IMG/VR virus record: IMGVR_UViG_3300033405_000009
Strand: one strand, 5' to 3'
From: a virus
Length of the DNA: 16,043 nt
Shown here: in pieces, positions 581 through 14,419 of the stretch
How the letters are laid out: the number at the start of each line of letters is the position of its first letter
How positions within the stretch are numbered: position 1 is the first letter of the stretch
Program-made: the position numbers and the translations under genes
The notes under the pieces: model-generated
Databases searched by the model: none
What the model was told of the DNA's origin: nothing
The model's input: only the letters and a program-made list of their open reading frames with translations

Positions 581-597
581 CTGAACCTCCACGATCG

Positions 598-624
598 AGT
601 ACGCATCGGCCCGGACAACTTACG
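598..624 (-). promoter_or_regulatory. Conserved promoter/leader motif, instance F. In gene orientation it reads CGTAAGTT-N12-GCGTAC-N8-GGAGG-N6-ATG.
   Basis: One of 6-7 copies of a bipartite motif seen directly in the sequence (plus strand: GTACGCATC...AACTTACG). It is followed by an SD and the start of gene 1..580. The N12 spacer contains the inverted repeat CGGCCCGG/CCGGGCCG. Confidence 0.5.
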
Positions 625-658
625 CTGGCCGGGCCGATTGTGACGGAGGATGAGCCGG

Positions 659-1063
659 TCAGAAGCCAGGAACACCTGCGCCGCCGCTGTGGCCCTGCGC
701 GGCCTCCTTCTCCTTCTGTGCGGTATCGCCGTCGATGAGCATGGTGTAGAACTCGTTCTCCGACAGGATCTTCCAGCCGTTGCGCTCGGCCTCGATGAGC
801 TTGGAACTCTTCTTCGGCTGCACGGTGCTGTTCGCGTTCCAGTCCTTGTTCGTGATGAGGAACCGCTCCCGGCCCCAAACGTTCTTCGGGCGCTCCTCGA
901 AGGCCCCACCCGCGCGCTGGATGATCGCTACGATCTCTTCGCGAGGACGTCCGAGGTGCCCCGTGATGGAGAACGTCTTGCCCTTGAGCACACCCGTGAT
1001 CTCCATCACGTCGATCACTGCCGCCAGATTCGCCTCATCCGTCTTCGTTCGTGCCATGTTCAT
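659..1063 (-). CDS. BRCT-domain protein (134 aa)
   Basis: The central segment GKTFSITGHLGRPREEIVAIIQRAGGAFEERPKNVWGRERFLITNKDWNANSTVQPKKSSKLIEAERNGWKILSENEFYTML matches the BRCT fold pattern as seen in the C-terminus of NAD-dependent DNA ligase: a GKT(F/V)(V/I)TG... segment, a hydrophobic core and a W-(K/R)-I-L/ee-F motif. The gene is GC-rich, has an ATG start and a GGAGG SD, and motif B lies upstream. Confidence 0.55.
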   Translation of the reverse strand: MNMARTKTDEANLAAVIDVMEITGVLKGKTFSITGHLGRPREEIVAIIQRAGGAFEERPKNVWGRERFLITNKDWNANSTVQPKKSSKLIEAERNGWKILSENEFYTMLIDGDTAQKEKEAAQGHSGGAGVPGF

Positions 1064-1078
1064 TTCCTCCGCGGTCGG

Positions 1079-1104
1079 ATACGCGCACTGCTGCGCAATT
1101 TACG
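1079..1104 (-). promoter_or_regulatory. Conserved promoter/leader motif, instance B: CGTAAATT-N12-GCGCGTAT-N9-GGAGG-N7-ATG.
   Basis: Plus strand shows ATACGCGC...AATTTACG. It sits upstream of the BRCT gene start at 1063. The spacer has the dyad TGCGCA..TGCGCG. Confidence 0.55.
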
Positions 1105-1110
1105 ACGCGT

Positions 1111-1611
1111 TCATTTGTCCATCACATCAGTAATGAATGATTCTCGAAGATCACCGCTGCCTTCTCGACAACAATCCTCGTATTCCTTGTATGGATCTAG
1201 AAACAGTCGCACCAGGATGAGATCCATTCCTACATCGAATTTGGAAGAACCGATAGATGCTTGTAGTAGCGCCCTTGGAACTGCGAGGTGTGCCATAACC
1301 CGCACATTTGGATCCTCAAAATCATGCGAGTCCTCTTTGCGTTGCGCAAGATGACGAAGGACTTTCGCAAGGTCAAATTTTCCTTCAAGGAGAAAGACTT
1401 CATCTTCCATCAGTTCATTGTCGGCATCCGGAAGATGGCTCTTAAGCAGCCACACGGATCTCCACTTTTGAATAAATGCGTGGAGAGCGTCTTCGGTTTG
1501 GACCTGATTCAGTTCGTTTAGATACGACTCCACGATCTCATTGGTTGCAGCAGCCCTATCTCGGTCAAAAGGAATGACCGGCAAGTCTAGCAAACACTTA
1601 TCTTTGATCAT
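1111..1611 (-). CDS. Hypothetical protein (~166 aa). The start is probably the internal ATG at 1611, which forms an ATGA overlap with the upstream gene's stop. The ORF track extends it to 1665.
   Basis: ATGGCTTCATGATCAAAG gives MAS* followed by MIK at the junction. It is an AT-richer small gene in a coupled operon. Confidence 0.45.
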   Translation of the reverse strand: MIKDKCLLDLPVIPFDRDRAAATNEIVESYLNELNQVQTEDALHAFIQKWRSVWLLKSHLPDADNELMEDEVFLLEGKFDLAKVLRHLAQRKEDSHDFEDPNVRVMAHLAVPRALLQASIGSSKFDVGMDLILVRLFLDPYKEYEDCCREGSGDLRESFITDVMDK

Positions 1612-2015
1612 GAAGCCATCACTTCCCAGCACATCCATTCCTTGTGAGTCAGGAATTGGATGCAATCTCCTGGTTCCGATGCCCTAAGGGCCTCGTAACA
1701 TTTGACAATCTGAGTAACATCCACGCCCGGAGGGATCGCAATTTTACACGGGTACCTCTGGTCGATCTGATCTTTGGTATCCTTGAGTCCGTATCCGAGA
1801 TGCTCTCGGAGAATCTTGATGCACTGAATCTTATTTACAGGATGCTTTGTGATCACGAGTGAACGTTGTGTGGCGTCGGGCATCCCCATGGCCACTGCAC
1901 CACGCCAGGCCGTCTTGCAAAAGACAATGAACTGTTCTTCGGTCAGAGTATCCGATTCTTCGGACAACTCCATGACCAGGTTTGTGTCACCCGTTACGCG
2001 CAGGTAAATCTTCAC
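1608..2015 (-). CDS. Small protein with a ribosomal L7/L12 C-terminal-domain-like segment (135 aa, GTG start).
   Basis: NKIQCIKILREHLGYGLKDTKDQIDQRYPCKIAIPPGVDVTQIVKCYEALRASEPGD resembles the L7/L12 C-terminal domain (K-IGVIK-VRE-TGLGLKEAKDLVD-AP...VSK--AEE-K--LE-AGA). The GTG start overlaps the upstream stop as GTGA. Confidence 0.4.
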   Translation of the reverse strand: MKIYLRVTGDTNLVMELSEESDTLTEEQFIVFCKTAWRGAVAMGMPDATQRSLVITKHPVNKIQCIKILREHLGYGLKDTKDQIDQRYPCKIAIPPGVDVTQIVKCYEALRASEPGDCIQFLTHKEWMCWEVMAS

Positions 2016-2410
2016 ACTTTCGGTACGCGCGCGAGCGCCGCATCTGCGGCTTTCTTGGCATCATGTTCATCTGGGCAAACACCTGATTCAATGGCTAGTC
2101 CGACCTCAGATCCCCAGACTCTCCAAGCCCAACCTTCTGGGTTTTTCCAAACCACCGCAGCAAGATTCCTAGAATCGCCAAAATAACAACGATCCCAAAA
2201 ATTCAACTCTTCATCGTGAGCCCATGGACCCGGCCTCCCATCGGAAGTGTCCACAATCTTAATTTGTACGTCTTCCGGAACTGTAACACTAGCTTCAACA
2301 GGTTGAGCCTGACGGGTCTTAGCCTCTCTCTTAGCTGCAGCTCGAGCTTTGAGCGATGCAGAAATTTTGGCAAGAGTTTCTGCGCTATGAACTACCTTCT
2401 TTTCTGACAC
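2012..2410 (-). CDS. YegP/DUF1508-like protein with a Lys/Ala-rich N-terminal tail (132 aa, GTG start).
   Basis: The C-terminal NLAAVVWKNPEGWAWRVWGSEVGLAIESGVCPDEHDAKKAADAAL matches the YegP repeat pattern (gewRwRL-a-NGeiia-SegY-sk-a-kaI). The N-terminus KKVVHSAETLAKISASLKARAAAKREAKTRQ is a basic A/K-rich tail. Confidence 0.4.
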   Translation of the reverse strand: MSEKKVVHSAETLAKISASLKARAAAKREAKTRQAQPVEASVTVPEDVQIKIVDTSDGRPGPWAHDEELNFWDRCYFGDSRNLAAVVWKNPEGWAWRVWGSEVGLAIESGVCPDEHDAKKAADAALARVPKV

Positions 2411-2500
2411 TCTCTGGCACCCTTCACATCTCCATTACATTCTGCACCATTGGCTCGTTAAACACTTCCATTACTCGTTCAGGTGGACATTTCAGGTCCA

Positions 2501-2866
2501 TCAACTTTCCAAAACGGACTTTACGAGCGCCTCATCCAGGATTTTTTGCATCTCATCCGGAGTGCGAATATGAATCAAGGCCTCGAAAAGATATGATGCC
2601 GTCGTATCTTCTTTGAAAGAGCGACCCTTCCCAAAAATGAAAATCTTCTTCCGAGGAGAATGTTTCTTAAAACGCCACTTATCGATTACGGATGAGACGA
2701 GAGGATAAGGAGTCCCCGGTTGACAACGAAAATCCGGCCAAATGGAAAGAGCTTCCCAAATAGCGAGATCATTAATTTGCATGCCAATGACGCTAGTATG
2801 CGAAATGTGAGCCGTCAACTGCTCCACTTTAGTGGAGAGTGTACCGAATAGAGAATCTTTCTTCAT
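2501..2866 (-). CDS. Hypothetical protein (121 aa)
   Basis: ORF in a coupled minus-strand array. It overlaps the upstream gene by 4 nt and ends in the C-terminal motif ...VLES. Confidence 0.45.
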   Translation of the reverse strand: MKKDSLFGTLSTKVEQLTAHISHTSVIGMQINDLAIWEALSIWPDFRCQPGTPYPLVSSVIDKWRFKKHSPRKKIFIFGKGRSFKEDTTASYLFEALIHIRTPDEMQKILDEALVKSVLES

Positions 2867-3186
2867 TCCTCCATCACTAGCTTTACAATCGCGTTGTCAG
2901 TGATATTTTTCATTTCCGTGCGCGTGCGAATGTATGCAACAGTCTGCATTCGTACTTTGTGCACGAACAGGAAGAGCGTAAATCCTCGCGCGTCGTCCGG
3001 TTTGCATCGCCACATGTCTACTACATCGGAGATGAAATACTTCGAATGCCCGTCTCTCATGCGCTGATTGTCTTGCGAGGTGACAAGCACAGTCCACAGT
3101 GCTTCATCAGTCACATCGACACCGACAATCCGAGCCTTCGGCAACCTGCGACGAAACTCCGCCACTCTGTCAGATACGAAACTCAT
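2863..3186 (-). CDS. Hypothetical protein (~107 aa; ATG at 3184-3186, 1-nt TGATG overlap with the upstream stop).
   Basis: ORF in the coupled array. TTGATGAGT lies at the junction. Confidence 0.45.
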   Translation of the reverse strand: MSFVSDRVAEFRRRLPKARIVGVDVTDEALWTVLVTSQDNQRMRDGHSKYFISDVVDMWRCKPDDARGFTLFLFVHKVRMQTVAYIRTRTEMKNITDNAIVKLVMEE

Positions 3187-3734
3187 CAAGCCACCATGAC
3201 ACCTTCAACTAGGATGAGATCCATCATTTCGATGATCTCATCTCGAGTTACGCCGTTTTCAAATGCCGATTTCAATGCCGGTTGAATGATGTCAAGCGCC
3301 ATCTTCCTTCCATGGGCGCGCTGCTTCTTCTCCGGTTCACCTCGATTGATGTAATCCACCAACTGATCATGAAATTTCTTCCCAGCCCCATTACTGATGA
3401 TTGCCTCGAAAATGGCGTGTCCGTATCCAACTTGACCCTTCAATTTCGCTTGGAGTTCTTCGGTTCCATGCTTCTGGAAGGCATGCATGAGTTTACTATC
3501 ATAGTCGTACCAGGTACGACTATCCATGATCTCATATACTGGAAGACGCAATTCGAGCTTAGGTTCAAACGGAGGAGTTGGATCGCCTTCAAGCACGAGT
3601 CTCACCAGAATCGAAGAGCCCGTCTTATTAACAGGTCTAATACTTTTGATTGAATATCGTGCAATGGCTGCATCCACCCGTCGATACTCGGGTGTTGCCA
3701 AGATCTTGGCTCTCCATTCTGCATCCGAAAGCAT
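3186..3734 (-). CDS. Hypothetical protein (~182 aa; ATG at 3732-3734).
   Basis: GGAGGATTGATG provides a strong SD 5 nt before the ATG. The SD spans the upstream stop. Confidence 0.5.
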   Translation of the reverse strand: MLSDAEWRAKILATPEYRRVDAAIARYSIKSIRPVNKTGSSILVRLVLEGDPTPPFEPKLELRLPVYEIMDSRTWYDYDSKLMHAFQKHGTEELQAKLKGQVGYGHAIFEAIISNGAGKKFHDQLVDYINRGEPEKKQRAHGRKMALDIIQPALKSAFENGVTRDEIIEMMDLILVEGVMVA

Positions 3735-3744
3735 CAATCCTCCG

Positions 3745-4095
3745 TCATGAGTTTAGGACAGATTCCACGATAGCTCGATTCAGGCGCTCTTCGAGTGCGG
3801 CATGCGGACCGATATGGATGGTTACATATCCACGCGAACGATCTCGAAAGGCAAACAGAGTCAGAGGGACCGCGTTTTTGTGTGCCTTCACATTGCGCCG
3901 GTCCCAAATCTTGCGAAGTTCCACAACGCTGGAAGCACTAACGGATTCATCCCGGCGGAGAACATTCCACACAGGAGAATCTACGTTCCAGACTTTGCAA
4001 TTCTTGGTAACATGACGGCGAAGAGTGTCCTCCAGCAATCCGATATTCTTCACTCGATCTAGGATTCCGGCAGAGTAATCCATACACCGACTCAT
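3745..4095 (-). CDS. Hypothetical protein (116 aa)
   Basis: ORF with an ATG start 1 nt after the upstream stop (TGAAATG). Confidence 0.45.
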   Translation of the reverse strand: MSRCMDYSAGILDRVKNIGLLEDTLRRHVTKNCKVWNVDSPVWNVLRRDESVSASSVVELRKIWDRRNVKAHKNAVPLTLFAFRDRSRGYVTIHIGPHAALEERLNRAIVESVLNS

Positions 4096-4096
4096 T

Positions 4097-4291
4097 TCAT
4101 GAGTTCATGATCATCCCAACCAGATACTCTTCCATGGAAATCGGTGACGGCCAACCCCAATTCCGATGCGGTGCGCACCTGCACAAATAAAGCCCGGCAA
4201 GGTAGTGGAACTGCACTTTTTCAGCACCACAAGGCTTCCCCCTGAGAGGACCGTGCTCGTAAATGTAATCACATTGGAATTTCTCAGGCAT
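4097..4291 (-). CDS. Small Cys-containing protein (~64 aa, MPEKFQCDYIYEHGPLRGKPCGAEKVQFHYLAGLYLCRCAPHRNWGW...). The ORF track's longer 128-aa version overlaps the VWA gene and the hairpin, so I trimmed it.
   Basis: ATG at 4289-4291 with a GGGTG SD-like sequence upstream. There are four Cys residues that could bind a metal. The 20-bp hairpin lies immediately upstream of it. Confidence 0.35.
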   Translation of the reverse strand: MPEKFQCDYIYEHGPLRGKPCGAEKVQFHYLAGLYLCRCAPHRNWGWPSPISMEEYLVGMIMNS

Positions 4292-4302
4292 GATCGCACC
4301 CG

Positions 4303-4347
4303 TGCAGTATATGGCAGGGATCATTGCGATCCCTGCCATATACTGCA
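4303..4347. promoter_or_regulatory. Perfect hairpin with a 20-bp stem and 5-nt loop (TGCAGTATATGGCAGGGATC-attgc-GATCCCTGCCATATACTGCA). It sits between the VWA gene stop (4353) and the next gene start (4291).
   Basis: Exact inverted repeat read directly from the sequence. No U-tract follows on either strand, so it is not a canonical intrinsic terminator. It could instead be an RNase III-type processing site, a protein operator or an attenuator. Confidence 0.6.
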
Positions 4348-4352
4348 GACTA

Positions 4353-5954
4353 CTAGAGCCTGCTGTTGCGGAGCGGAGCCACGCGCCCGAAGGAGGGCTT
4401 GTACTCCTTCGACTTGCGGGTGATGACCCACACCACGTCCATCCCAGAGGGCCTGAGCTTCTCGGGGACCACGCCGCAGTCACCGTCCGTGATGATGATC
4501 ACCACGTCGAACTCCTTCCCCAACTTCTCAGGGAACTCCGCGAAGAACTGATCGAAAACCGTGCCTCCGCGGCCGACGATCTTCGTCCGCTTGATGTCGC
4601 TCTTCTGCGTGACCCTCTGCACCTCGTCCCACTTCGGCGAGGCATCGCAGCAGACCAGATGACCCTCGGTGTTGTCTCCGAGGACCTGAAGTTGGGAAAG
4701 CCCATAACGCAGATCATCGTCGCTCATGGACCCGCTCGTGTCGATCATGGCAAGCCACCGAGGCATGTGGGTGTGCCGGCGAGGCAGGTACTGCTTGGGG
4801 GTGGCATTGAGCCACCGCCGCCGCAGACGCTTCCAATCGTTCTTCATGCCGGCGTCCTGCACCTTCCGCATGAGAGCGGACCGCACGATATCGGTGAACT
4901 TGAGGGTAGGCTTGTACAGCTCCCCGAGGACATCCTCGATGTCGCTGGGAACCGACCCACGCATCGTGACAGCAGCTTGCGCTGCTCTCATGACATCGCT
5001 CATCACCTCTTCCTTGGTGACGGCCGCCTGCATGTGGGCGTCCATAGACGACAAGGGATCGTGCGAGGAGCCGCACTTGGGGCAGCTGTGGTCTCCCGGG
5101 TCTCCGTGTCCATCCCCACACTGATGGGGACCTTGCCCTTGACCACCACCAGGCTGCTGCCCGTTCTGGCCCTGTCCTTGGCCCTGTCCAGGGCTCTGGC
5201 CCTTCTGACCAGGCTTCTGCCCCTTCCCACCCTGACCCTGCTGTCCCTGGCCCTGCTTCTTCGCCTTGCCGGTCTTGGGATCCATGGAGAGAGCGCCGCA
5301 CTGAGGACACTTGCGGGGGCTCTTGTCCCAATGCTTCATGATCTCTTCGTAGATGCTCTCGGGCGAGCGCCCGTGGAGCGTCTTATCCGCGAAGACGCGG
5401 GACTTGCCGTCATCGGGGATCTCCTGCTTGCCGTCGATGAAGGCGAGGAGCTCTGCGAAGGGGAGGGCCTCACCGAGCGCACCACCCCAGAGCTTGGGAC
5501 CCTTGAAGCCGGCCTTCTCACGCGAGATCTCGATCACCGCGTTGACAACGTAGTCGATGGCCCAGTTGAAGATCCGGGGGTTCATCCCGAGCCCACGCTG
5601 GCAATGGTAGAAGATGACGTGGTAACCTTCGTGCTCCATGACGACGGGAACCTCGTCGCCGTTGAGGCTCGCGAGGAAATCCGGATGCCAGTAGAACTTC
5701 TTGCCATCCGTGGCCGCCGTGGTGAACATCCCCTTCGGGTGCCCCGGCAACTCGTCGGCCAGCTCGTGCGGCTTCGGCGCCGTCAGCGCAAAGAGGAAGG
5801 GGTTACCACCGTTCGAAGGTTGGCGGTAGAGCCGCGTCATGCAATTGGTGATCTTGGTCTGAAGCTCCGCCAAGCGGGCGTTGTCGTAGGAGCCGTCCTC
5901 CTGCTTCAACACCATGCGCGGATCCTTGAGCCGTGCTCCGATCGTCGTCATCAT
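4353..5954 (-). CDS. VWA-domain protein with an N-terminal HExxH putative metallopeptidase domain (DUF2201/vWA-MoxR-associated type; CobT/ViaA-like partner of a MoxR ATPase), 533 aa.
   Basis: HEGYH zinc-peptidase motif near aa ~110. MIDAS motif DTSGSMSD and VVIIITDGD in the C-terminal VWA domain. Central split Zn-ribbon CPQCG...CPKCG. GC-rich, ATGATG start, and motif A with GGAGG upstream. Confidence 0.75.
   Translation of the reverse strand: MMTTIGARLKDPRMVLKQEDGSYDNARLAELQTKITNCMTRLYRQPSNGGNPFLFALTAPKPHELADELPGHPKGMFTTAATDGKKFYWHPDFLASLNGDEVPVVMEHEGYHVIFYHCQRGLGMNPRIFNWAIDYVVNAVIEISREKAGFKGPKLWGGALGEALPFAELLAFIDGKQEIPDDGKSRVFADKTLHGRSPESIYEEIMKHWDKSPRKCPQCGALSMDPKTGKAKKQGQGQQGQGGKGQKPGQKGQSPGQGQGQGQNGQQPGGGQGQGPHQCGDGHGDPGDHSCPKCGSSHDPLSSMDAHMQAAVTKEEVMSDVMRAAQAAVTMRGSVPSDIEDVLGELYKPTLKFTDIVRSALMRKVQDAGMKNDWKRLRRRWLNATPKQYLPRRHTHMPRWLAMIDTSGSMSDDDLRYGLSQLQVLGDNTEGHLVCCDASPKWDEVQRVTQKSDIKRTKIVGRGGTVFDQFFAEFPEKLGKEFDVVIIITDGDCGVVPEKLRPSGMDVVWVITRKSKEYKPSFGRVAPLRNSRL
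5100..5290. repeat. Low-complexity CTGGCCCTG-type simple repeat. It encodes a GQ/PGQ-rich linker (KKQGQGQQGQGGKGQKPGQKGQSPGQGQGQGQNGQQPGGGQGQGP) inside the VWA protein, between the two CxxCG halves.
   Basis: Imperfect tandem repeats are visible in the DNA and the protein. Confidence 0.6.
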
Positions 5955-5970
5955 TCACCTCCACACACCA

Positions 5971-5996
5971 ATACGCGCGCGATTGCGGAATTTACG
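5971..5996 (-). promoter_or_regulatory. Conserved promoter/leader motif, instance A: CGTAAATT-N12-GCGCGTATT-N7-GGAGG-N6-ATGATG.
   Basis: Plus strand shows ATACGCGCGCGATTGCGGAATTTACG. It lies upstream of the VWA gene start at 5954. Confidence 0.55.
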
Positions 5997-6012
5997 CGGC
6001 GAATGCGAGTTA

Positions 6013-6237
6013 TCAGCTTTCCAAAATTGCATTTACGATAATTTCCTCACAAGTGAGACGTACAACTTTACGAACATTCCAAGCATCCGTAGCAGGGGTT
6101 CTCAAATGAACTTCCATTTGCAAATCTACCGGCGGAAGCTCAGGATTCCAAGAGGAGGATTTACAATTGGAGCAAATCCACTCGGGCGGCAAAGGTTTGC
6201 CACCGGAAATGACCCCGCGCCGCCATACATGACCCAT
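6013..6237 (-). CDS. Hypothetical small protein (74 aa), ends ...ILES.
   Basis: ORF with an ATG start. It is the first gene of the AT-rich cassette downstream of motif A. Confidence 0.35.
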   Translation of the reverse strand: MGHVWRRGVISGGKPLPPEWICSNCKSSSWNPELPPVDLQMEVHLRTPATDAWNVRKVVRLTCEEIIVNAILES

Positions 6238-6272
6238 TGATCACAGTACGCTCAGCCACGCAGGATTTCTGC

Positions 6273-6707: not shown

Positions 6708-6910
6708 CACGATTCCATGATTTCAAAAATCAAGAATTCTTCATCGGTCAGTTTCTTCCATTTATTGCGATTATCATTCTCGGATAGCATCGCCATAACT
6801 GAGCTTGGATGACACTCTTCACAAAAGAGATCCATTACAACAAGATCGTTCTGATAGAAGTACTCGTATCCAAATGAGGCATCCTTCTCACATCGGTCAC
6901 ATTGAACCAT
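6707..6910 (-). CDS. Small Zn-ribbon-like protein (~67 aa; CDRCEK...CEECH).
   Basis: Two CxxC pairs. ATG at 6908-6910 overlaps the upstream stop as TGATG. Confidence 0.4.
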   Translation of the reverse strand: MVQCDRCEKDASFGYEYFYQNDLVVMDLFCEECHPSSVMAMLSENDNRNKWKKLTDEEFLIFEIMES

Positions 6911-8240: not shown

Positions 8241-9117
8241 ATGAAAAATTACAATTATGGCATAGAACTCGATAACCAGTCGGGAATTTATTCTTGATCA
8301 ACCATTTCTGGAAAACGTTGCCCCTCTTGTCGATTTCCTTGCGATGATCATTTCCTCCACCGTGGATGTGATCAATCGCGAGAACATCAGTATCTTTGAC
8401 GGCACAACATGCACAAGATGGAATGGGAGCGCTGTAGTGAACTAGACATTCCATCTTGATCTTGCAATCGTAGGCATACTTTGCAAGAGCCATCTTCTTC
8501 AAGTCGACGGGATATGGCACTCCCTCGATGATTCGAGTCTTAAACGAATTAGTCTCATCCCAAATCTTGTTTTCAAAGGCTTTGCGTTGAAGTCGCAAGG
8601 ATTCTTTGCCGTTACAATTATGGCAAAGGACTCGATAACCGGGCGGGAATCCGGATTTCTCGAGCCATAGCAAATATCGCTCGGTTTTGCGACCGAGGAA
8701 CTCACGATGGATGTTGCCTCCACCCGTGATGTGATCTAGGCAGAGGAAGCGGAGCTTCAACTCCTCACACAAGAAGCACTTCGGGATTCCACCAGAGTAA
8801 ACGCCATAAACGCGAACTCTGATGTCCTCACGCCTATCCTTCATCTGCGCGAGGACGTCTTCCTTATTCTCTGCGTAATATTTGGCGTTGTACGCAGAAG
8901 CCTTATCGGGATTGGCTAGCTTGAATTGGCGGGTCTTTTCTTGACTCGCCTTCGGGTCAGCTGCGTATCGCGCCGCCCGTGCATCCTTATCACACTGGAT
9001 GCACTTGTACGTATATACGTCACGACCTTTGTAGGTATATGCCTTATATCGACGGAATCCCTCATCTAGAGATTGGATCCCATGAATACGACAAGCCCGG
9101 GTCGGTGTGTTGGTCAT
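8203..9117 (-). CDS. HNH endonuclease with two tandem HNH/Zn-finger modules (304 aa).
   Basis: Two copies of C..C...DH(I)xGGGNxHR...FPxGYRVLCHNCN: CLDHITGGGNIHREF...RVLCHNCN and AIDHIHGGGNDHRKE...RVLCHNCN. The gene is AT-rich. It is a paralog of gene 12453..13115. Confidence 0.75.
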   Translation of the reverse strand: MTNTPTRACRIHGIQSLDEGFRRYKAYTYKGRDVYTYKCIQCDKDARAARYAADPKASQEKTRQFKLANPDKASAYNAKYYAENKEDVLAQMKDRREDIRVRVYGVYSGGIPKCFLCEELKLRFLCLDHITGGGNIHREFLGRKTERYLLWLEKSGFPPGYRVLCHNCNGKESLRLQRKAFENKIWDETNSFKTRIIEGVPYPVDLKKMALAKYAYDCKIKMECLVHYSAPIPSCACCAVKDTDVLAIDHIHGGGNDHRKEIDKRGNVFQKWLIKNKFPTGYRVLCHNCNFSYGAYGNCPHQSV

Positions 9118-9147
9118 GCTGAGAACCTAACACCAACCCGGGCTTGT
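9091..9147 (-). promoter_or_regulatory. Long imperfect hairpin that encloses the HNH start codon and SD (ACAAGCCCGGGT(T/C)GGTGTT...loop with AGGTTCTCAGCATGACC...AACACCGACCCGGGCTTGT).
   Basis: 12 perfect bp plus 5 more bp of stem seen in the sequence. The ATG at 9115-9117 lies in the loop. The hairpin sits 20 nt after the MoxR stop. Confidence 0.55.
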
Positions 9148-9168
9148 GGCAAGATTACTGAGTGTGGA

Positions 9169-10287
9169 TCACTCGTCCTTCATCGCCTGACGAATTTTGA
9201 GGAATGCCTCCATGAACGGGGCCACCTTCGTGAGCTTGTGGTCCTGAATCATCTTCATGTTCATGACGCTCTTCGCAGCACCGATGCAGAACTCCGAGGG
9301 GAGCTTGCGGAGCCACCCGAACACGTTGTCCGTGGTCTTGTGGAGCTTACGCTCGTGCGCCTCCTTGTCGGAGCCGGAGGGCGTCACGCGGCAGAGGGCC
9401 GCCACGGCGTTCACGGCGGAGATGGCGCAAACGAACTGGCGATCGATCTCCATCTTGTCGAGATCGGGGTGCTTGCCCTCGCGGACCAGCGCCTCGATGA
9501 GCGGCTCGATGTGGCGGTAGTGCTCCAGCCACACCTTGAACTTGACCGCGGAAGCCATCCCCACGCGACCCGCCACCAGCATCGTCTGGAAGTCGACACT
9601 GGAGAGGTGGCGCTCCGAGCCGTTGGTGAAGTCCAGGTCCTTCGCCGCCAAAGTCCACGCGCGAGGCGAGGGGTGGCAATACGCCGTGGAGTCGCCCTCG
9701 GGCGGGGGCATCAGGAGCTGCTCCTGATTCTTGCTGAGGAACCCGACGATGAGGGGGTTGACCCCTGCGCCCGTGGCCCACTCCTGCCACGGCTCGAAGG
9801 CGTGCGTCACGCGGTAGACGCCGCACCGATTGGTGAGGGCGTGCGAGACGGGGAGCGAGAAGGCACCCTCGTCAGGCAGGTTGCCCGTCGCGATGACCGC
9901 GTGGATGTTCATCTTGCGACCGTTCATCGCACGGAACTGGAACAGCTCGAGGCAGGGGTTCTGCAGCTCGGGCTTGGCCTTATCCACCTCGTCCACGAGG
10001 AGGATCACCGGCCGCTCGTCCTTGTTGTAGAGCGGGATGGTCTCCGGCGGAGCATAGGTCGTCTTGCCGTTCTCCACGAGAGGCAGACCGATCATGTCGG
10101 GTGCCTCCAGGACGGAGAGGTTGAGGTAGACGTAGCGAAACTTCTCGTTCTCGCACGCCTGCATGGCCATCTCGGTCTTGCCGATACCGGCCGGGCCGAA
10201 GGTCATGAGATTGCCCCCGGTCCGAATCGTGAACTGCAGCACCTTCATGAGGTGCGCCTGATCGAGCTCCGTAACACCAGTTAGCAT
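9169..10287 (-). CDS. MoxR-family (AAA_5) AAA+ ATPase, CobS/RavA-like (372 aa).
   Basis: Walker A FGPAGIGKTEMA. Walker B VILLVDEVDKA. Sensor-1-like HAVIATGN. The length and single-AAA architecture are typical of the MoxR/CobS class. GC-rich, with motif C and GGAGG upstream. Confidence 0.75.
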   Translation of the reverse strand: MLTGVTELDQAHLMKVLQFTIRTGGNLMTFGPAGIGKTEMAMQACENEKFRYVYLNLSVLEAPDMIGLPLVENGKTTYAPPETIPLYNKDERPVILLVDEVDKAKPELQNPCLELFQFRAMNGRKMNIHAVIATGNLPDEGAFSLPVSHALTNRCGVYRVTHAFEPWQEWATGAGVNPLIVGFLSKNQEQLLMPPPEGDSTAYCHPSPRAWTLAAKDLDFTNGSERHLSSVDFQTMLVAGRVGMASAVKFKVWLEHYRHIEPLIEALVREGKHPDLDKMEIDRQFVCAISAVNAVAALCRVTPSGSDKEAHERKLHKTTDNVFGWLRKLPSEFCIGAAKSVMNMKMIQDHKLTKVAPFMEAFLKIRQAMKDE

Positions 10288-10308
10288 GAGTTATTGCCTC
10301 CGATCCGC

Positions 10309-10335
10309 AATACGCGCGGATTCGCCGAATTTGCG
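10309..10335 (-). promoter_or_regulatory. Conserved promoter/leader motif, instance C: CGCAAATT-N12-GCGCGTATT-N8-GGAGG-N9-ATG.
   Basis: Plus strand shows AATACGCGCGGATTCGCCGAATTTGCG. The dyad ATCCGC/GCGGAT flanks GCGTATT. Confidence 0.55.
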
Positions 10336-10385
10336 GATGCGGACCGCACCTTCTTCATGGGAATTGTACCGTACATCTTCACGAC

Positions 10386-10568
10386 TCACGACTCCATTAC
10401 CTTGGAAACAATTGCATCTTCACAAGTGGGATTGATTTTGAGCCAAGCTTGAGCCGAAGGACTCCAATTGTCACCATGCTTATTCCACTTGAGCCAGGAA
10501 TCGCACCAGCTACAGTGATAAGTCACCTGGTCATCCTGCGAGTATTGGTACCCCCAAGTATGTTCCAT
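10386..10568 (-). CDS. Small Cys/Trp-rich protein (~60 aa, MEHTWGYQYSQDDQVTYHCSWCDSW...), ends ...VMES.
   Basis: The ATG sits 1 nt after the upstream stop (ATGGAGTCCTGAGATGG). The SD is embedded in the upstream gene's last codons. Confidence 0.4.
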   Translation of the reverse strand: MEHTWGYQYSQDDQVTYHCSWCDSWLKWNKHGDNWSPSAQAWLKINPTCEDAIVSKVMES

Positions 10569-10569
10569 C

Positions 10570-10779
10570 TCAGGACTCCATAACCGTTGCCACAACGTGG
10601 GCTTTATGAAGTTCTCCAATTCGTTCAAACCAAGGTGAAATGTCCATCCCGCGACGGAAAGCGATGGCTCTCAATTTCTCAATATCTGCCGTAGTGGGAT
10701 TGGCTTCCATCTTTGAAATCAATTTCTCAAAAGCAGGAGTCTTCCAGTCCCGATCTTTAGGAGATCTCTGCCGGCTCAC
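10570..10779 (-). CDS. Hypothetical small protein (69 aa), ends ...VMES.
   Basis: ORF with an ATG start. Confidence 0.35.
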   Translation of the reverse strand: MSRQRSPKDRDWKTPAFEKLISKMEANPTTADIEKLRAIAFRRGMDISPWFERIGELHKAHVVATVMES

Positions 10780-10868
10780 GATTCGAGGACCTCTGCTACG
10801 AGAAATTCTGCGTGGGTGAAGGTTTCTACGGGGGTAGATGATTTATGCCGGAATTGGGAGCCGTCCAC

Positions 10869-11468
10869 CTAGTTCTCCATCAATGTGGCGACTTGTGCCT
10901 CTTTCAGGAGGTCTTGAATTTCCTCCATAGTCCATCCGCTTTGAATACGTTGAATGAACGTCTTGTAAAGACTCTTGCGTTGCTGAGCCTTTATACGATC
11001 TGCAGTCTCTTGGATGCGTCCTCGCATTTTACGCACCTGCGTTTTATTAGTGAACGCCGCTTTGCATGCATCCAGGACCGCATCATTCAATGCGCTGGCT
11101 TTCTTTGGCAAGACAGCCTGCACGATTTCTGCGAGATAATTCATGCGGGTGTCGTTCGTGCCTAGCGTCGACCCCATATAGTGGCGAACGACATGGAAGA
11201 CGCCTTGACTACCCAAAGCCACGATGATCGGATAATTCCGATTCCAGACCATCTTAGCCACGGCATACGGCTTTGTGCCCTCAAGACGCAATTCTGCGCC
11301 TTTCACCTTGCAGTGATGGACGTACCACGCAGCAGCTAGAAGGGCATTCTCGGTCCCTTCTGGGTCATGGTATCCCCGAATCGCATGAATCCATTTCGGT
11401 TGTCCTTGCAGAACCCTAGCCAGCCGCCTTCGAAACATCTTTTCGAAGAAAGCCTCAGCTTTGAGCAT
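10869..11468 (-). CDS. Hypothetical protein (~199 aa; ATG at 11466-11468, 2 nt after the upstream TGA, with a GGAGAG SD inside the upstream ...LES codons).
   Basis: TTGGAGAGTTGAACATG lies at the junction. Confidence 0.45.
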   Translation of the reverse strand: MLKAEAFFEKMFRRRLARVLQGQPKWIHAIRGYHDPEGTENALLAAAWYVHHCKVKGAELRLEGTKPYAVAKMVWNRNYPIIVALGSQGVFHVVRHYMGSTLGTNDTRMNYLAEIVQAVLPKKASALNDAVLDACKAAFTNKTQVRKMRGRIQETADRIKAQQRKSLYKTFIQRIQSGWTMEEIQDLLKEAQVATLMEN

Positions 11469-11470
11469 GT

Positions 11471-11683
11471 TCAACTCTCCAAGATTTGGAACACGACAGC
11501 TTCTGGATTAGAAAGAACATCTTCGTATATATACAGATACTCCGGTTCCGGTTGATGCTTCTTGCATCTATGACACCAATTCCCTCGAAATTTCAAGTGG
11601 ATGACCGGTGGATTAGTACAGAAATGCTTCTCATCGTTGATGATGGCATCGCACAGTGCCCAGTTCCAACACGACTGAACCAC
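11471..11683 (-). CDS. Small Cys/His-rich (Zn-binding-like) protein (70 aa).
   Basis: Contains C..C...C..HRCKKH. It abuts the stop of gene 11683..12351. Confidence 0.4.
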   Translation of the reverse strand: MVQSCWNWALCDAIINDEKHFCTNPPVIHLKFRGNWCHRCKKHQPEPEYLYIYEDVLSNPEAVVFQILES

Positions 11684-12351
11684 TATGACTCCAAAACGTC
11701 AGCCACGGCGAATTCGCGCAGAGCCTCGCGCAGTACGTCATCTCCGAGAAAGGAGAACTTGCAGAGGACTTCCCGTACGTCGCGCATGCAGAAGTTAACG
11801 AGAGCCGACTTCTTCTCGGCCTCGAAGGCCTCATTGACCTCGAAACCTGGGTTGTACATAACAGCCCAGGCCTCCTCGTTCAGCCGCTTTTCGGCTGCGA
11901 GCCTATCTTCCTTGAAGATTTCATCGACGTGATTACGTCCCCAGCTGGAGAAAGACTGAGCATCCTTGCGACCGCGCTGCTTCTTCTTGTCCACGGACGT
12001 GCCGAAGACCGTCTCCGGTTGGCAGTTGAATGTGGGGACACCGCCCTCCTTACCGAAGTGCTTCTTGGCGATGATATCGAAGTCTGCATCCTCCGCGAGC
12101 CGCCACGTGCTGAGATGGCAGTTGCCGTTCGTCCCACCTCGGTTGAAGGTGGCCTCCGGATGGAAATTGGTGTGGAAGACGACGCTTGCATAAGGACGCA
12201 TCGGATTACCGCGTTCGTCGTGGGTCTTCAGCTCGAAGGTGTGGCGTGTGATGCGCGCATTCTCGTACTTGGCACGGATTGAAGCGAGCAGCTCCTTACC
12301 TTCCGCCGTGTCGAGGAGAAGCTTGTAAATCCTATCGTAACTCGATGCCAT
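11683..12351 (-). CDS. Hypothetical protein (~222 aa, starts MASSYDRIYK). GC-rich. The ORF track's N-terminal extension to 12411 is rejected because motif D and GGAGG sit right before the internal ATG.
   Basis: CATATG at the start, with GGAGG 8 nt upstream. It contains HxD...H-like residues (KTHDE...FHTNFH), but I cannot assign a family. Confidence 0.5.
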   Translation of the reverse strand: MASSYDRIYKLLLDTAEGKELLASIRAKYENARITRHTFELKTHDERGNPMRPYASVVFHTNFHPEATFNRGGTNGNCHLSTWRLAEDADFDIIAKKHFGKEGGVPTFNCQPETVFGTSVDKKKQRGRKDAQSFSSWGRNHVDEIFKEDRLAAEKRLNEEAWAVMYNPGFEVNEAFEAEKKSALVNFCMRDVREVLCKFSFLGDDVLREALREFAVADVLES

Positions 12352-12371
12352 ATGACAACCTCCGCGATCGA

Positions 12372-12396
12372 ATACGCGCCGATCCGCGAGATTTTT
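12372..12396 (-). promoter_or_regulatory. Conserved promoter/leader motif, instance D: AAAATC-N12-GCGCGTATT-N8-GGAGG-N8-ATG.
   Basis: Plus strand shows AATACGCGCCGATCCGCGAGATTTT. It lies in a divergent intergenic region that also feeds the plus-strand HNH gene. Confidence 0.5.
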
Positions 12397-12452
12397 GCCC
12401 GATCTATTCAATTGTACAGATCGGTTAGAACTCTAGTACGGATTACAAAGAG

Positions 12453-13115
12453 ATGAAGTTCAAAAGATGTTCCAGATGCCGTAAGAAAAAACAAATCAAG
12501 GGCAATTTCACAATTCACAGGAAAAATCATGATGGATTGAGTGCATGTTGCAAAGATTGCAATAAGACCCGTGTTCGAATTCTAAGAGCCAAGAACCCGA
12601 ATGAACACAAGGAAGCCTCAAGGCTTTCTCGGTTAAGACGGAAGCTTCGAGTAATGACTCACTACTGTGGTGGAAAACCTCCCGAATGCGCGTGTTGCGG
12701 TGAGAAAATATTGGAATTTCTCACCATGGATCATATCAACAATGATGGAAATCAGCATCGTAGGAAAATTCCCAGAAATGAATGGGGAAGGATGGTAGGT
12801 TGGCTGGAAAAACATAATTTCCCGCCCGGATTCCAGGTTCTCTGCTGGAACTGCAATTGCGGTAAGAGCCATGATGGGATCTGTCCACATGTTAAATCCG
12901 TTTCTCTTTCATCCTTACAGAAACCAGATCCTGCTACCGCAGGACTTAAACAGCGTGAACGGAAATTAGTACAAAACGGGACCCACTATCTCTGCAAGAT
13001 TCACGGACCTGTGCTATTGAGAGATTGTTATGTGCGACTTGAAAAGCGACGAAATTATTCGAGTTATCGATGCAAAGAATGTGTTCGAATTCATAACAGT
13101 CACAGATACTCTTGA
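12453..13115 (+). CDS. HNH endonuclease, single module plus a C-terminal Cys-rich extension (220 aa). It is a paralog of gene 8203..9117.
   Basis: CACCGEKILEFLTMDHINNDGNQHRRK...FPPGFQVLCWNCNCGKSHDGICPHVKSV parallels the AIDHIHGGGNDHRKE...FPTGYRVLCHNCNFSYGAYGNCPHQSV block of the 304-aa protein. Its C-terminal CKIHGP...YRCKECVRIH resembles the N-terminal CRIHGI...YKCIQCDKD of the 304-aa protein. Confidence 0.7.
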   Translation: MKFKRCSRCRKKKQIKGNFTIHRKNHDGLSACCKDCNKTRVRILRAKNPNEHKEASRLSRLRRKLRVMTHYCGGKPPECACCGEKILEFLTMDHINNDGNQHRRKIPRNEWGRMVGWLEKHNFPPGFQVLCWNCNCGKSHDGICPHVKSVSLSSLQKPDPATAGLKQRERKLVQNGTHYLCKIHGPVLLRDCYVRLEKRRNYSSYRCKECVRIHNSHRYS

Positions 13116-13157
13116 TTTGTGCTCGGTTGTCGGATTGTCTTGATTGTAGTTTCATTC

Positions 13158-13526
13158 ATGAGCCATTCATCAAATCGATTTTCGCAAGATACTCACATGG
13201 AGCTCTTGCCTGAAGCAGATTCAGTCGTACGCCAGTTCATTGCATGCGTCATGGATGCCGCAGGACTCAAGAGAGAGGCTGCATATATCAGGAAACTTCC
13301 TCCTGTTCAGTGTCAACAGTCACTCGTCCAAGCGGCGCGTACACTCGCACGTGCGAGATCAAAAGGTGCAAAGCCAGGCCCGTGGAAACAGATTGTCGAA
13401 GATACTCTCTTCTTCGGTTCGGCTGCGCTCTGGGCAGCTCTTCAAGGGAATCAAGCTTCCTTCGACACCCATACTCAACGAATGAAGGCTTCACTCGTAA
13501 CAGCTCCTGAGCGGCTTCTCCACTAA
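13158..13526 (+). CDS. Hypothetical protein. The start is uncertain: the ORF track gives GTG at 13119, and internal ATGs lie at 13158 and 13197.
   Basis: Protein-like composition (AAYIRKLPPVQCQQSLVQAARTLARARSKGAKPGPWKQIVEDTLFFGSAALWAALQGN), but there is no clear SD. Confidence 0.3.
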   Translation: MSHSSNRFSQDTHMELLPEADSVVRQFIACVMDAAGLKREAAYIRKLPPVQCQQSLVQAARTLARARSKGAKPGPWKQIVEDTLFFGSAALWAALQGNQASFDTHTQRMKASLVTAPERLLH

Positions 13527-13754
13527 ACGTGGTATCATGAGAAATGGGTCTATGCGAAAAGTGTGTCTGTCGACGGGATAGTCGCACGCGCGTTCTCAAA
13601 ATTCGAGAAAAATCGCTCGCGCCAGGACTCATTTGCGTAGGCCCATTGAAAGATCCTCAGCCACGCACCGATTGCAAATGGCATGAAGGGTACGGAATCG
13701 TTCCAGCGAAGAGCCGTGTGAATTGCGACGATTTCGTCTCGGTTCAGGACTTCC

Positions 13755-14375
13755 CTAGCTCTCCATGATAGAGCATACTGTCGCGAGATCCATGAGTTCT
13801 TTCTCGTCCTGAGGAAATTCGTACGCTCCGGCGTCGTAAATGGCTGCCACCGCCCGAATCAGTGTCCTGTAAGGACCGCCGAGTTCGACTCGGACACCGT
13901 TACGCCAACGACAACAACTTTCTGCGATGGTATGCCAGTTAGGTTCCGTGGCGCGTTTCCCGATGTAAAAATCGAACATCACCTTCAGACCCTTCATCAT
14001 CTGCTCGGGAGTGAGATTGATGGAATACTCGTCCAGAGCAGCCGGGTCCCCGATCCGCCACATGAACTCCTTGAACGTGGCATCTTGAATTTTGCCAGGG
14101 AACGCCTTCATATATTTGAGAGCGAGTCCCACAAGTCCTTTGGACGTGCATCCGAAGAATTTCGCCCGTTGACGATCGTTGAGGTAGGCCCGCAAGATTT
14201 CCTCAGGATCGCATTTCGTGCAGTCCTTTGCGTGCTTGAAGATCATCTTGTAATAGGTATCGGACCCACTGATGAACTCTCGCAGAGGGCGGGTGGAATC
14301 TGCCTTTGTCCCTCCGCGGTGACTGCCACCTGTCTGTCCGTGACCTTTGCAAATTAGAATGCAATCCAAGGCCAT
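13755..14375 (-). CDS. Hypothetical protein (206 aa), moderately GC-rich.
   Basis: ATG with GGAGG 7 nt upstream, and motif E upstream. The gene is convergent with the plus-strand gene at 13158. Confidence 0.5.
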   Translation of the reverse strand: MALDCILICKGHGQTGGSHRGGTKADSTRPLREFISGSDTYYKMIFKHAKDCTKCDPEEILRAYLNDRQRAKFFGCTSKGLVGLALKYMKAFPGKIQDATFKEFMWRIGDPAALDEYSINLTPEQMMKGLKVMFDFYIGKRATEPNWHTIAESCCRWRNGVRVELGGPYRTLIRAVAAIYDAGAYEFPQDEKELMDLATVCSIMES

Positions 14376-14393
14376 TCGACACCTCCGCGATCA

Positions 14394-14419
14394 ATACTGC
14401 GCATCGCGCAGAACTTACG
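14394..14419 (-). promoter_or_regulatory. Conserved promoter/leader motif, instance E: CGTAAGTT-N12-CAGTATT-N8-GGAGG-N7-ATG.
   Basis: Plus strand shows ATACTGCGCATCGCGCAGAACTTACG. The dyad TGCGC/GCGCA lies in the spacer. Confidence 0.5.

Follow-up and report, generated by a model that had tools for sequence, protein, structure and literature searches.

Several described systems provide points of comparison for the element examined here, a bipartite motif that recurs in front of genes along a 16,043-nt stretch of viral DNA (IMG/VR record IMGVR_UViG_3300033405_000009; hereafter, the window, meaning the whole stretch at its full length). In bacteriophage T4, middle promoters combine a MotA box at about -30 with the host -10 element, the sigma factor being appropriated by AsiA and MotA, and late promoters carry TATAAATA, recognized by gp55, while gp33 occupies the beta flap. 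The promoters of the extracytoplasmic function (ECF) sigma factors sigma-W, -X, -M and -V of Bacillus subtilis consist of tgaAAC and CGTA or CGTC, separated by spacers of 14-17 bp, and adhere closely to this consensus (PMC5758882). Among phage-encoded sigma factors, gp47 of Salmonella phage 7-11 recognizes GTAAtg-(16)-aCTA, with starts 6-9 bp downstream, and gp36 of phiEco32 recognizes tAATGTAtA (PMC8948821). The group 3 SigB promoter, GTTTAA-N14-GGGTAT, tolerates gaps from N12 to N17 (PMC9847131). Cluster K mycobacteriophages carry a 13-bp start-associated sequence (SAS), GGGATAGGAGCCC, which overlaps the Shine-Dalgarno (SD) sequence and lies 3-7 bp before the start codon; upstream of it is an extended element (ESAS), two 17-bp inverted repeats separated by a gap that varies in length, and the function of SAS and ESAS is unknown (PMC3203893). 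The motif of the window consists of two boxes, CGYAAATYCnnC and CGTAT, set at fixed distances from each other and from an SD sequence or a start codon. It is probably a promoter private to a lineage of huge soil phages of roughly 400 kb, with transcription predicted to start at motif position 35, counted from the first base of box 1. Phage-specific promoters are known as a class; what is unusual in this private, conserved signal of an uncultivated phage lineage is the rigid fusion of promoter and leader, and in the literature on huge-phage promoters we found no description of the motif.

To judge from its sequence relatives, the window, part of a 33.5-kb contig of JGI sample 3300034091, is a fragment of the genome of an uncultivated huge phage. 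It has no nucleotide similarity to isolated phages, and the best protein similarity to them (~25% identity) is that of its ATPase and VWA genes (AAA and DUF2201), which are distantly N4-like and resemble N4 gp24/gp25. The nearest relative is a 436,316-bp IMG/VR contig (the 436-kb phage), and the same signal is found in relatives of 436, 427, 393 and 242 kb. Assemblies of the same phage are 99.99% identical, and population variation is therefore uninformative.

A preliminary description of the window, made from the letters alone, had listed six strong copies of the motif, all of which were recovered, each on the minus strand (coordinates are those of the whole window unless a relative is named). 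The pattern CGTAAATT-N12-GCGTAT, with at most three mismatches, matches the window seven times, against 0.76 expected, always on the minus strand, and none of 200 dinucleotide shuffles reached seven matches. Scored with a weight matrix of motif positions 1-28, which contains no SD information and was trained on 91 copies from other genomes, the six strong copies reach 17.7-30.5 bits; in block-shuffled windows, the mean maximum was 7.4 bits and the overall maximum 16.4 bits. Within the window, the six copies share the form CGYAAATYCnnC-N9-CGTAT-N8-GGAGG, and the layout described for them holds, with 12 nt from box to box, 7-8 nt from there to GGAGG and 5-9 nt from GGAGG to ATG.

The highest-scoring copy, C (10335-10310, unit 10285..10335; 30.5 bits), has no mismatch to CGYAAATTC-N11-GCGTAT. 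Its box 1 (10335-10324) reads CGCAAATTCGGC and its box 2 (10315-10310) GCGTAT, followed by the predicted start site at 10301, GGAGG at 10301-10297 and ATG at 10287-10285. The gene behind it (9169-10287) encodes a MoxR-like ATPase (Pfam AAA_5), and the ortholog in the 436-kb phage keeps both boxes with a diverged spacer. Copy A (5996-5971, unit 5952..5996; 0 mismatches, 27.7 bits) has box 1 at 5996-5985, box 2 at 5976-5971, the predicted start site at 5962, GGAGG at 5962-5958 and ATG at 5954 (or 5951); it heads a DUF2201 metallopeptidase/VWA gene (4353-5954; Pfam DUF2201_N and DUF2201), and orthologous promoters are kept in the 436-, 427-, 393- and 242-kb relatives. Copy B (1104-1079, unit 1055..1104; 0 mismatches, 20.1 bits), with box 1 at 1104-1093, box 2 at 1084-1079, the predicted start site at 1070, GGAGG at 1070-1066 and a likely ATG at 1057, precedes a gene with a BRCT domain (659-1057; Pfam BRCT), the orthologs of which in the 436-kb and 242-kb relatives also have the motif in front.

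Copy D (12397-12372, unit 12349..12397; 20.7 bits) has the weakest box 1 (CAAAAATCTCGC, 12397-12386), with box 2 at 12377-12372, the predicted start site at 12363, GGAGG at 12363-12359 and ATG at 12351-12349. Copy E (14419-14394, unit 14373..14419; 19.4 bits) combines box 1 CGTAAGTTCTGC (14419-14408) with CAGTAT as box 2 (14399-14394); its GGAGG (14386-14382) stands 7 nt past box 2 and its ATG at 14375-14373. The genes behind D (11683-12351) and E (13755-14375) are of unknown function, their products end in ...VLES and ...IMES, respectively, and for each the ortholog in the relative keeps the motif. Copy F (624-599 from the start of box 1 to the end of box 2, unit 578..624; 2 mismatches, 17.7 bits) has box 1 CGTAAGTTGTCC (624-613), box 2 GCGTAC (604-599), the predicted start site at 590, GGAGG at 590-586 and ATG at 580-578, and precedes a gene that runs off the window (1-580). 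Its box 1 forms the loop of a dyad, CGGCCCGG/CCGGGCCG.

Five of the six motif-headed genes are conserved in the relatives, with 36-73% amino-acid identity. All six have the highest GC content at third codon positions (GC3) in the window, 0.62-0.89 compared to 0.34-0.59 for the other genes, most of which have no homolog in the relatives' loci examined; the variable lower-GC genes that lie behind the conserved ones carry no such signal. Thus, the preliminary statement that the motif marks only GC-rich genes holds for the strong copies, but two further candidates precede lower-GC genes. The first (6244-6271, unit 6235..6271; 16.5 bits), overlooked in the preliminary description, has box 1 CAGAAATCCTGC (6271-6260), box 2 GCGTAC (6251-6246) and no GGAGG; the ATG (6237-6235) itself occupies motif position 35, making this a leaderless-type copy. 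It exactly occupies the 35-nt gap after the stop of open reading frame (ORF) 6273-6710, and the gene behind it (6013-6237), with its ATG 8 nt past box 2 and an in-frame stop 6 nt upstream, has no alternative start. The second candidate (2021-2048, unit 2013..2048; 18.4 bits), listed as possible in the preliminary description, is supported by its matrix score but ambiguous. Its box 1 is degenerate (CGCAGATGCGGC, 2048-2037), box 2 is GCGTAC (2028-2023), GGAGG is lacking, and a GTG (2015-2013) lies 7 nt past box 2, which is plausible; however, the copy sits inside the last codons of ORF 2012-2410. The stop of that ORF overlaps the GTG of ORF 1608-2015 (GTGA), so that translational coupling, instead of a leaderless mRNA, could account for translation of the latter. 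The product of ORF 1608-2015 (-) shows a sub-threshold Pfam match to the C-terminal domain of ribosomal protein L7/L12 (E = 2.6e-5; 24.9 bits, cut-off 25.9). A variant reported at 8011-8040 (-), in turn, is not a copy, with a best score of 7.8 bits, which is noise level: only the word GCGCGTAC is present, with no box 1, GGAGG or start codon, and it falls within a palindromic stretch in a 437-nt gap without a called gene (7766-8202).

Beyond the window, a 21-kb locus of the 436-kb phage (L001) contains 16 matches where 0.7 would be expected, and the motif switches strand at the points at which the genes change orientation. Among viral contigs, strict motif-plus-SD patterns matched mainly three IMG/VR contigs (393, 427 and 436 kb), with single matches on two short ones; they also matched some 20 small contigs of metagenome projects on soil, peat and wetland. 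A boxes-only viral scan (15 specified bases) was swamped by chance matches. In 596 Gb of bacterial genomes, the strict patterns gave five scattered single matches, no locus with more than one copy and no lead to a host or prophage.

In the 436-kb genome, every strict-pattern match falls within contig positions 422,105-436,316 and 1-46,750, one region of ~61 kb across the contig ends, and the remaining 375 kb contain none. A boxes-only matrix trained on 55 copies from outside this genome, again without translation-signal information, was applied to the 61-kb region and found 63 sites, against 0 in shuffles. GGAG stands at positions 32-37 in 49 of the 63 (exactly at 35 in 46), a start codon at 34/35 in seven, and neither in the last seven. 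Random occurrence, or occurrence in the wrong orientation, had been named at the outset as the outcome that would speak against a functional motif, and the 56 of 63 sites that are co-oriented with GGAG or a start codon point the other way. The 61-kb region also contains tRNA-Lys(UUU), tRNA-Leu(UAA), an ATP-dependent DNA ligase and dozens of ORFs of 44-120 aa, each with its own motif copy, and looks like a region of takeover and DNA metabolism, of the early or middle class. The two tRNA genes of the 436-kb relative have no motif of their own. At one place in this phage (L128 10479-10545), two box 1 sequences are inverted (GGATTTACA, 15 nt, TGTAAATCC) and a 13-bp stem (CGACGCGGGCCGG/CCGGCCCGCGTCG) holds the plus-strand box in its loop; the plus-strand 'copy' has no SD and points at the 3' end of a minus-strand gene. 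Such an arrangement recurs on a small contig (L147).

The consensus was derived from 99 non-redundant copies. It reads C1 G2 Y3 A4 A5 R6 T7 Y8 C9, two variable positions, C12, a C-rich stretch, G20, a variable position, C22 G23 T24 A25 T26 Y27, six variable positions, Y34 and then G35 followed by GAGGTGAc. In these copies, which were selected with a pattern that includes CGTAT (at most three mismatches), C22 is found in 95 and G23, T24 and A25 in all 99. About 15 of the 34 motif positions are conserved and the spacers differ freely, whereas the spacing is nearly invariant: AARTYN and CGTAY are 12 nt apart in 91 of 92 copies, and box 2 and GGAGG 8 nt apart in 91 of 95. Box 1 is CGYAAAT(Y)C in the window and in the 436-kb and 427-kb phages, and AAAC occurs only in the 242-kb relative, whose variant motif, CGSAAAC ... 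GCGTACCG-N6-GGAGG, lies upstream of the DUF2201 gene, a gene for a protein with sigma region 4 (see below) and the BRCT gene. Comparison of the window with the 436-kb phage across five orthologous promoter pairs, the proteins of which are 36-73% identical, showed 80% identity in box 1 and 92% in box 2, compared to 35% in the upstream flank, 49% in the spacer and 51% in the segment between box 2 and the SD. Judged from these alignments, the five pairs amount to a phylogenetic footprint on the boxes.

The likely position of the 5' end is suggested by what follows box 2. Among the copies, 32 lack GGAG 8 nt past box 2, and about half of these are probably chance matches. In seven of the 32, however, ATG stands exactly 8 nt past box 2, where ~0.5 would be expected by chance, and each opens an ORF of 74-511 aa; the copy at 6244-6271 is one of these seven in the clade. 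Two further GGAG-less copies have GTG at 7 nt past box 2. A start codon that lacks an SD and keeps a constant distance to a promoter-like signal is characteristic of a leaderless mRNA. Because a leaderless mRNA begins at its start codon, the simplest reading is that position 35, the ninth base past box 2, is the primary 5' end in both classes, and we infer it as such. Bacterial RNA polymerase prefers to start at a purine preceded by a pyrimidine. Of the 99 copies, 95 have a pyrimidine at position 34, and position 35 is a purine, which lends indirect support to a start at position 35; a perfect SD would have A at 34.

With the start placed at position 35, box 1 would be a -35-type element (-34 to -23) and box 2 a -10-type element (-13 to -9). 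Most mRNAs would start with the SD itself (5'-GGAGGUGA...), and a minority would be leaderless, starting with the start codon. Most likely, the enzyme would be the bacterial-type RNA polymerase of the host, redirected by a phage-specified specificity factor resembling the sigma-70 family; we propose such a reader because the geometry and the -10 word CGTA match ECF-type promoters. In the window, the promoter would head each conserved GC-rich gene, and the variable lower-GC genes behind it would be co-transcribed.

In its geometry, the motif resembles promoters of the sigma-70 family of the ECF-like kind, albeit with an unusual -35 box, and not housekeeping ones. As in ECF promoters, there are two boxes with a fixed spacer, co-oriented with genes (91 of 92 copies; 56 of 63 sites), box 2 supplies a -10 element with CGT (CGTA/CGTC), and the gap between CGYAAA (positions 1-6) and CGTA (22-25) is 15 bp, within the 14-17 bp of ECF promoters. 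The preliminary description had judged the spacing incompatible with a -35/-10 pair, which is correct only for the hexamers chosen there. It had also likened box 1 to an actinobacterial TAnnnT -10 element; this did not survive, since position 3 is T in only 37% of the 99 copies and position 8 is C in 63%, and no -35-like box is conserved upstream of box 1. The proposed resemblance of the two boxes as direct repeats is neither needed nor general. A scan of the window with the housekeeping sigma-70 consensus gave seven sites, against 11.3 expected in shuffles, none of them at the motif. Overall, the evidence favours the suggestion that the motif is a phage-specific promoter read by a phage-specified factor, a reading that here rests on sequence comparison.

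The likeness to ECF promoters extends to two short, near-consensus boxes, a CGTA identical to the sigma-W determinant, a purine-rich -35 (G-Y-A-A-A), the 15-bp gap obtained with CGYAAA aligned to TGAAAC, hardly any tolerance in spacer length and an inferred start a few bases past the -10. By contrast, the -35 of the motif ends in AAAT(Y)C rather than AAC and has six more conserved positions (to C12), the motif is fused at a fixed distance to an SD or start codon, and about a hundred copies in a virus are unlike a stress regulon with an anti-sigma partner. The SigB promoter is similar in that GCGTAT is one base from GGGTAT and the gap is short (13 nt with GYAAAT and GCGTAT as hexamers), but its upstream box is GTTTAA rather than CGYAAAT and the spacing of the motif is invariant. 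With the promoters of the phage 7-11 and phiEco32 sigma factors, the motif shares a phage-private consensus unlike that of the host and, probably, an association with a temporal gene class; with phage 7-11 in particular, it shares a bipartite layout, a GTAA upstream box and a start at a similar distance (mapped 6-9 bp downstream in phage 7-11, 9 bp inferred here). It differs in its downstream box and spacing (~14 nt versus 16) and in abundance, with 63 sites in 61 kb of a 436-kb genome as opposed to 6-8 promoters per 70-kb genome. Furthermore, those promoters have no fixed link to a ribosome-binding site and their sigma factors have been demonstrated, whereas for the motif there is only a candidate. 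The parallel with T4 is one of idea only: sigma region 4 is replaced or mimicked by a protein of the phage, which reads an upstream box foreign to the host ~12 bp from the -10, and labour is split between flap-binding and -10-reading proteins. A T4 middle promoter can be set aside, as both the MotA box (a/t)(a/t)TGCTT(t/c)A and TAnnnT are absent from the motif logo, and so can a T4-type late promoter (a single TATAAATA), as two boxes are conserved (80% and 92%) and box 1 lies at least 26 nt from the inferred start.

The leaderless class also led to a candidate reader of the boxes. In the 436-kb phage, a leaderless-type copy heads a 511-aa ORF (L128 4451-5983, -) with a Sigma70_r4 match just below threshold (22.8 bits, cut-off 24.1), a KOW motif and a coiled-coil region. 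A profile search with this ORF returned 31 relatives; all 10 that were scanned have a Sigma70_r4 match (E down to 7e-17), two of them just below the gathering score, and none has region 2. In the 242-kb contig, a 240-aa member (P0002; L174 ~5905-6723, +) lies between the DUF2201 gene and a helicase plus the BRCT gene, a neighbourhood syntenic with the window. Its AlphaFold model (mean predicted local distance difference test score 84) has two domains, and the best Protein Data Bank matches of the model in Foldseek are all sigma factors (E ~3e-3). The layout of the family is an XRE-type helix-turn-helix (HTH) followed by sigma-70 region 4, with no detectable region 2, and the gene is motif-driven in both the 436-kb and 242-kb genomes. 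A protein of this kind could recognize box 1 while docked on the polymerase flap. As a candidate reader, it is a lead rather than a finding, and we grade it much lower than the promoter reading.

It is conceivable, if doubtful, that a split or otherwise non-canonical specificity system reads the boxes, with the XRE-HTH and sigma-region-4 protein as its DNA-reading part and promoter and translation fused. In such a system, region 4 would sit on the polymerase flap and on box 1, and a second helix-turn-helix or a region-2-like partner on box 2. Every message would have a zero-length leader, with the SD or AUG at +1. In read-through RNA, the C-rich, anti-SD-like spacer would mask the SD, so that only self-initiated transcripts would be translated. 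Masking of the SD in read-through transcripts has a precedent in the T4 lysozyme gene.

Several observations weigh against the promoter reading. Box 1 lacks the AAC of ECF -35 elements, having AAAT instead, with AAAC only in the 242-kb relative. Box 2 is without the -7 T of the housekeeping -10 element; no T is conserved 3 nt after its TAT among the 99 copies. The XRE/sigma-4 protein has no melting domain and would need a partner or the host sigma factor; no homolog of it is present in the window or in 21 kb of the window's contig, and no protein with sigma region 2 was detected in the ~270 kb of clade DNA examined (phmmer, RpoE and SigF). The start site is inferred from the SD-or-ATG rule and from geometry, and an mRNA starting exactly at the SD is unusual. 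About one promoter per kb without terminators in between is equally compatible with a processing signal. Finally, the placement of box 1 or box 2 in a hairpin loop in a minority of copies is unexplained by a promoter model. Dyads bracket box 1 in 16% of copies, against 4.7% expected, with stems of 8-13 bp that place it in the loop (stems of at least 8 bp: 8% of copies against 0.3%), and they bracket box 2 in 10%, against 2.9% expected; in copies C, D and E of the window, such stems adjoin the SD.

We consider it unlikely that the promoter is read by an RNA polymerase of the phage's own, whether single-subunit or a non-canonical multisubunit enzyme of the phiKZ, AR9 or N4 type. In favour of this possibility, some groups of jumbo phages have polymerase genes of their own (PMC7824862); the signal is also lineage-private and unlike housekeeping promoters, its rigid spacing runs into the transcribed GGAGG as in phage-polymerase promoters, and the AAA and DUF2201 genes are, at ~25% identity, distantly N4 gp24/gp25-like. 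However, the 34-bp bipartite -35/-10 layout, with its -1 pyrimidine and +1 purine, suits a bacterial holoenzyme, the -10 word CGTA is an ECF word, and the protein encoded behind the motif has sigma region 4 and is not a polymerase; the clade loci examined, which are a minor part of each genome, showed no polymerase gene. The motif is not an N4 virion-polymerase hairpin (5-7 bp stem, 3-nt loop) either. Contrary to the preliminary description, in which the spacer almost always carried its own dyad, dyads of at least 6 bp within the spacer occur in 1 of 99 copies and are not enriched, which removes a required spacer hairpin of the N4 kind; the box 1 dyads, found in 16% of copies, have loops of ~8-14 nt in the examples inspected.

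A signal acting at the RNA level, either a processing site at which polycistronic transcripts are cut at position 34/35 or a translation signal like SAS/ESAS, with messages then beginning at the SD or AUG, appears distinctly improbable. The fixed distance to translation signals is what such a signal would show, as are the density of about one copy per kb, upstream stops that abut or overlap box 1 and the lack of terminators between genes. Rfam covariance models (E < 0.1) and a tRNA/tmRNA scan of the window gave no match, and an intrinsic-terminator scan of the window nothing relevant. SAS and ESAS are equally lineage-private, one-oriented, linked to gene starts and confined to the non-structural half of the genome (PMC3203893). 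Like the motif, they are conserved upstream of orthologous genes, contain the SD and are absent from host genomes, but in the motif two dissimilar boxes, neither of them palindromic, keep a fixed spacing in front of an ordinary SD, and a leaderless subclass points to a transcription start. Identity with SAS/ESAS is ruled out by the different sequence and by boxes that are not inverted repeats. The spacer is indeed enriched for anti-SD words (CTCC is found there in 24 of 95 copies, compared to 0 and 6 in the flanks; CACCTCC also). Predicted masking of the SD in read-through RNA (3.72 paired bases) slightly exceeds that with shuffled spacers (3.46, p = 0.001) but is no stronger than that with spacers swapped between copies (3.69), and there is no consistent RNA structure, the flanking dyads being found in only 10-16% of copies, which led us to reject a conserved structure across the unit. 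Other features also argue for a promoter instead. Copy D lies in a 104-nt divergent intergenic region, with its upstream neighbour (12453-13115) on the plus strand, and copy E in one of 71 nt, bounded by a plus-strand gene that begins at 14447; in neither is anything conserved besides the motif. As the upstream neighbours of both are on the other strand, the genes behind D and E need a promoter of their own there. Moreover, the distance to the start codon varies, whereas the SD or AUG always begins at position 35, which points to a 5' end, and the box positions match sigma-70-family geometry, with a sigma region 4 protein linked to the motif.

Very improbable, in our view, is an operator, either a stoperator-like repressor site or an activator site beside an unrecognised core promoter, and with it the operator and translational-repressor alternatives of the preliminary description lose ground. 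The motif is asymmetric, orientation-coupled, intergenic and multicopy, all of which it shares with the 13-bp stoperators set against SAS in the cluster K paper; its two boxes are 21 bp apart, on one face of the helix, and the two helix-turn-helix domains of the motif-linked protein could take one box each. Nevertheless, stoperators, the asymmetric 13-14 bp intergenic sites of cluster A mycobacteriophages that are oriented with transcription and bound by the phage repressor, share the orientation coupling but have no fixed distance to an SD or ATG, whereas that of the motif is invariant. No other promoter-like element is conserved within 30 nt upstream (positions -29 to 0 of the 99 copies carry no more than 0.35 bit each), the 71-nt region at copy E leaves no room for a core promoter, and the leaderless copies can be accounted for only with transcription starting at position 35. 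A recombination junction for the exchange of variable gene cassettes, with a secondary regulatory look, as proposed for the T4-type promoter-stem-loop cassettes, is barely credible: in the window, the motif does border variable lower-GC blocks and conserved GC-rich genes, and HNH/EndoVII-like genes occur in the variable blocks, but ~15 of 34 conserved positions provide little homology, the motif precedes nearly every gene in stretches of the relative without variable blocks, and the fixed relation to SD or ATG and the leaderless class would go unexplained.

For huge phages that are known from metagenomes alone, hardly any gene regulation has been described. The signal defines, from sequence alone, ~60 transcription units in one 61-kb region of the 436-kb genome, a regulon that probably represents one temporal class, and in the window it sets the conserved core apart from the variable accessory genes that interrupt it. 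For annotation, it provides exact gene starts, including leaderless ones. The lineage is predicted to carry its own promoter-specificity factor, for which a candidate can be named. If the start site is as proposed, the 34-bp unit would be a compact, probably orthogonal promoter with a built-in minimal leader, and a natural test case for ribosome loading on mRNAs with the SD at the very 5' end.

The lower-GC genes between the motif-headed ones have an organization of their own. In the runs 1111-4299, 6013-7816 and 10386-11683 (-), starts commonly overlap the preceding stop (ATGA, GTGA, TTGA), TTG and GTG starts are frequent, and the GGAG encoded by the '...M-E-x-stop' tail lies only 1-3 nt upstream of the start. 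Because many start codons overlap the preceding stop, these genes are probably co-transcribed and translated by coupling, not from ribosome-binding sites of their own.

Three lower-GC ORFs match PHROG families of HNH endonuclease or endonuclease VII (8203-9117, -; 12453-13115, +; 15288-15794, -). They lie between conserved genes, and two of them, with their neighbours, form the only plus-strand blocks. By position and family, they look like free-standing homing endonucleases inserted into a row of conserved genes. In the 427-kb phage, a homolog of 8203-9117 adjoins the AAA gene. Just past the stop of the AAA gene in the window is an 18-bp imperfect hairpin (9091-9147; 94% complementary, 21-nt loop), which is not conserved in the relatives examined; it encloses the ATG (9117) of the HNH-like ORF and could mask the start of this homing-endonuclease-like gene in read-through RNA. 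Downstream, 7766-8202 comprises 437 nt without a called gene in any assembly, with a GC content of 0.53-0.57 and stops in all six frames. It contains a hairpin (7789-7830) and a palindrome (8013-8050); it matches neither Rfam families nor tRNAs, and nothing similar exists in the relatives.

A second repeated element is the palindrome atatGGCAGGG(G)ATC-loop-GAT(C)CCCTGCCatat. The copy of the window (4303-4347) forms a perfect 20-bp stem with a 5-nt loop directly 3' of the stop of the DUF2201 gene. The palindrome is found in the same place in the 436-kb phage, where there are at least four further copies; in the relative, it was located at L001 ~15490-15550 and L128 12515-12545 (GGCAGGG core from ~12518), with another copy in L128 whose core starts from ~12904, and at further loci at L136 ~2730-2780 and 3362-3390 and L130 ~6760-6810. 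The sequence of the stem itself is conserved, beyond pairing, and the palindrome may serve in termination or attenuation, or be bound by a dimeric protein.

Finally, many sequence-unrelated proteins share a C-terminus of roughly E-x-x-V-x-x-V-M-(E/D)-S-stop, here called the VMES tail. It, or a close variant, ends 17 of the 30 genes of the window, including minus-strand genes ending at 13755, 11683, 11471, 10869, 10570, 10386, 7583, 6910, 6707, 6013, 3745, 3186, 2863, 2501, 1608 and 1111, and a plus-strand gene ending at 15249. The tail also occurs in the 436-kb relative (contig 1-46750) and in L145 and L170. In ~116 kb of clade DNA, 49 ORFs carry it, and it is 24 times commoner at C-termini than internally; with the tail trimmed, the 49 proteins fall into 44 BLAST clusters. 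In the literature on shared C-terminal motifs, we found no description of it. Genes that have the motif and genes that lack it both carry the tail, which is missing from the relative's most GC-rich block. Its serine is encoded by both TCN and AGY codons, and conservation therefore acts at the peptide level; the tail might be a sorting, packaging or degradation tag.

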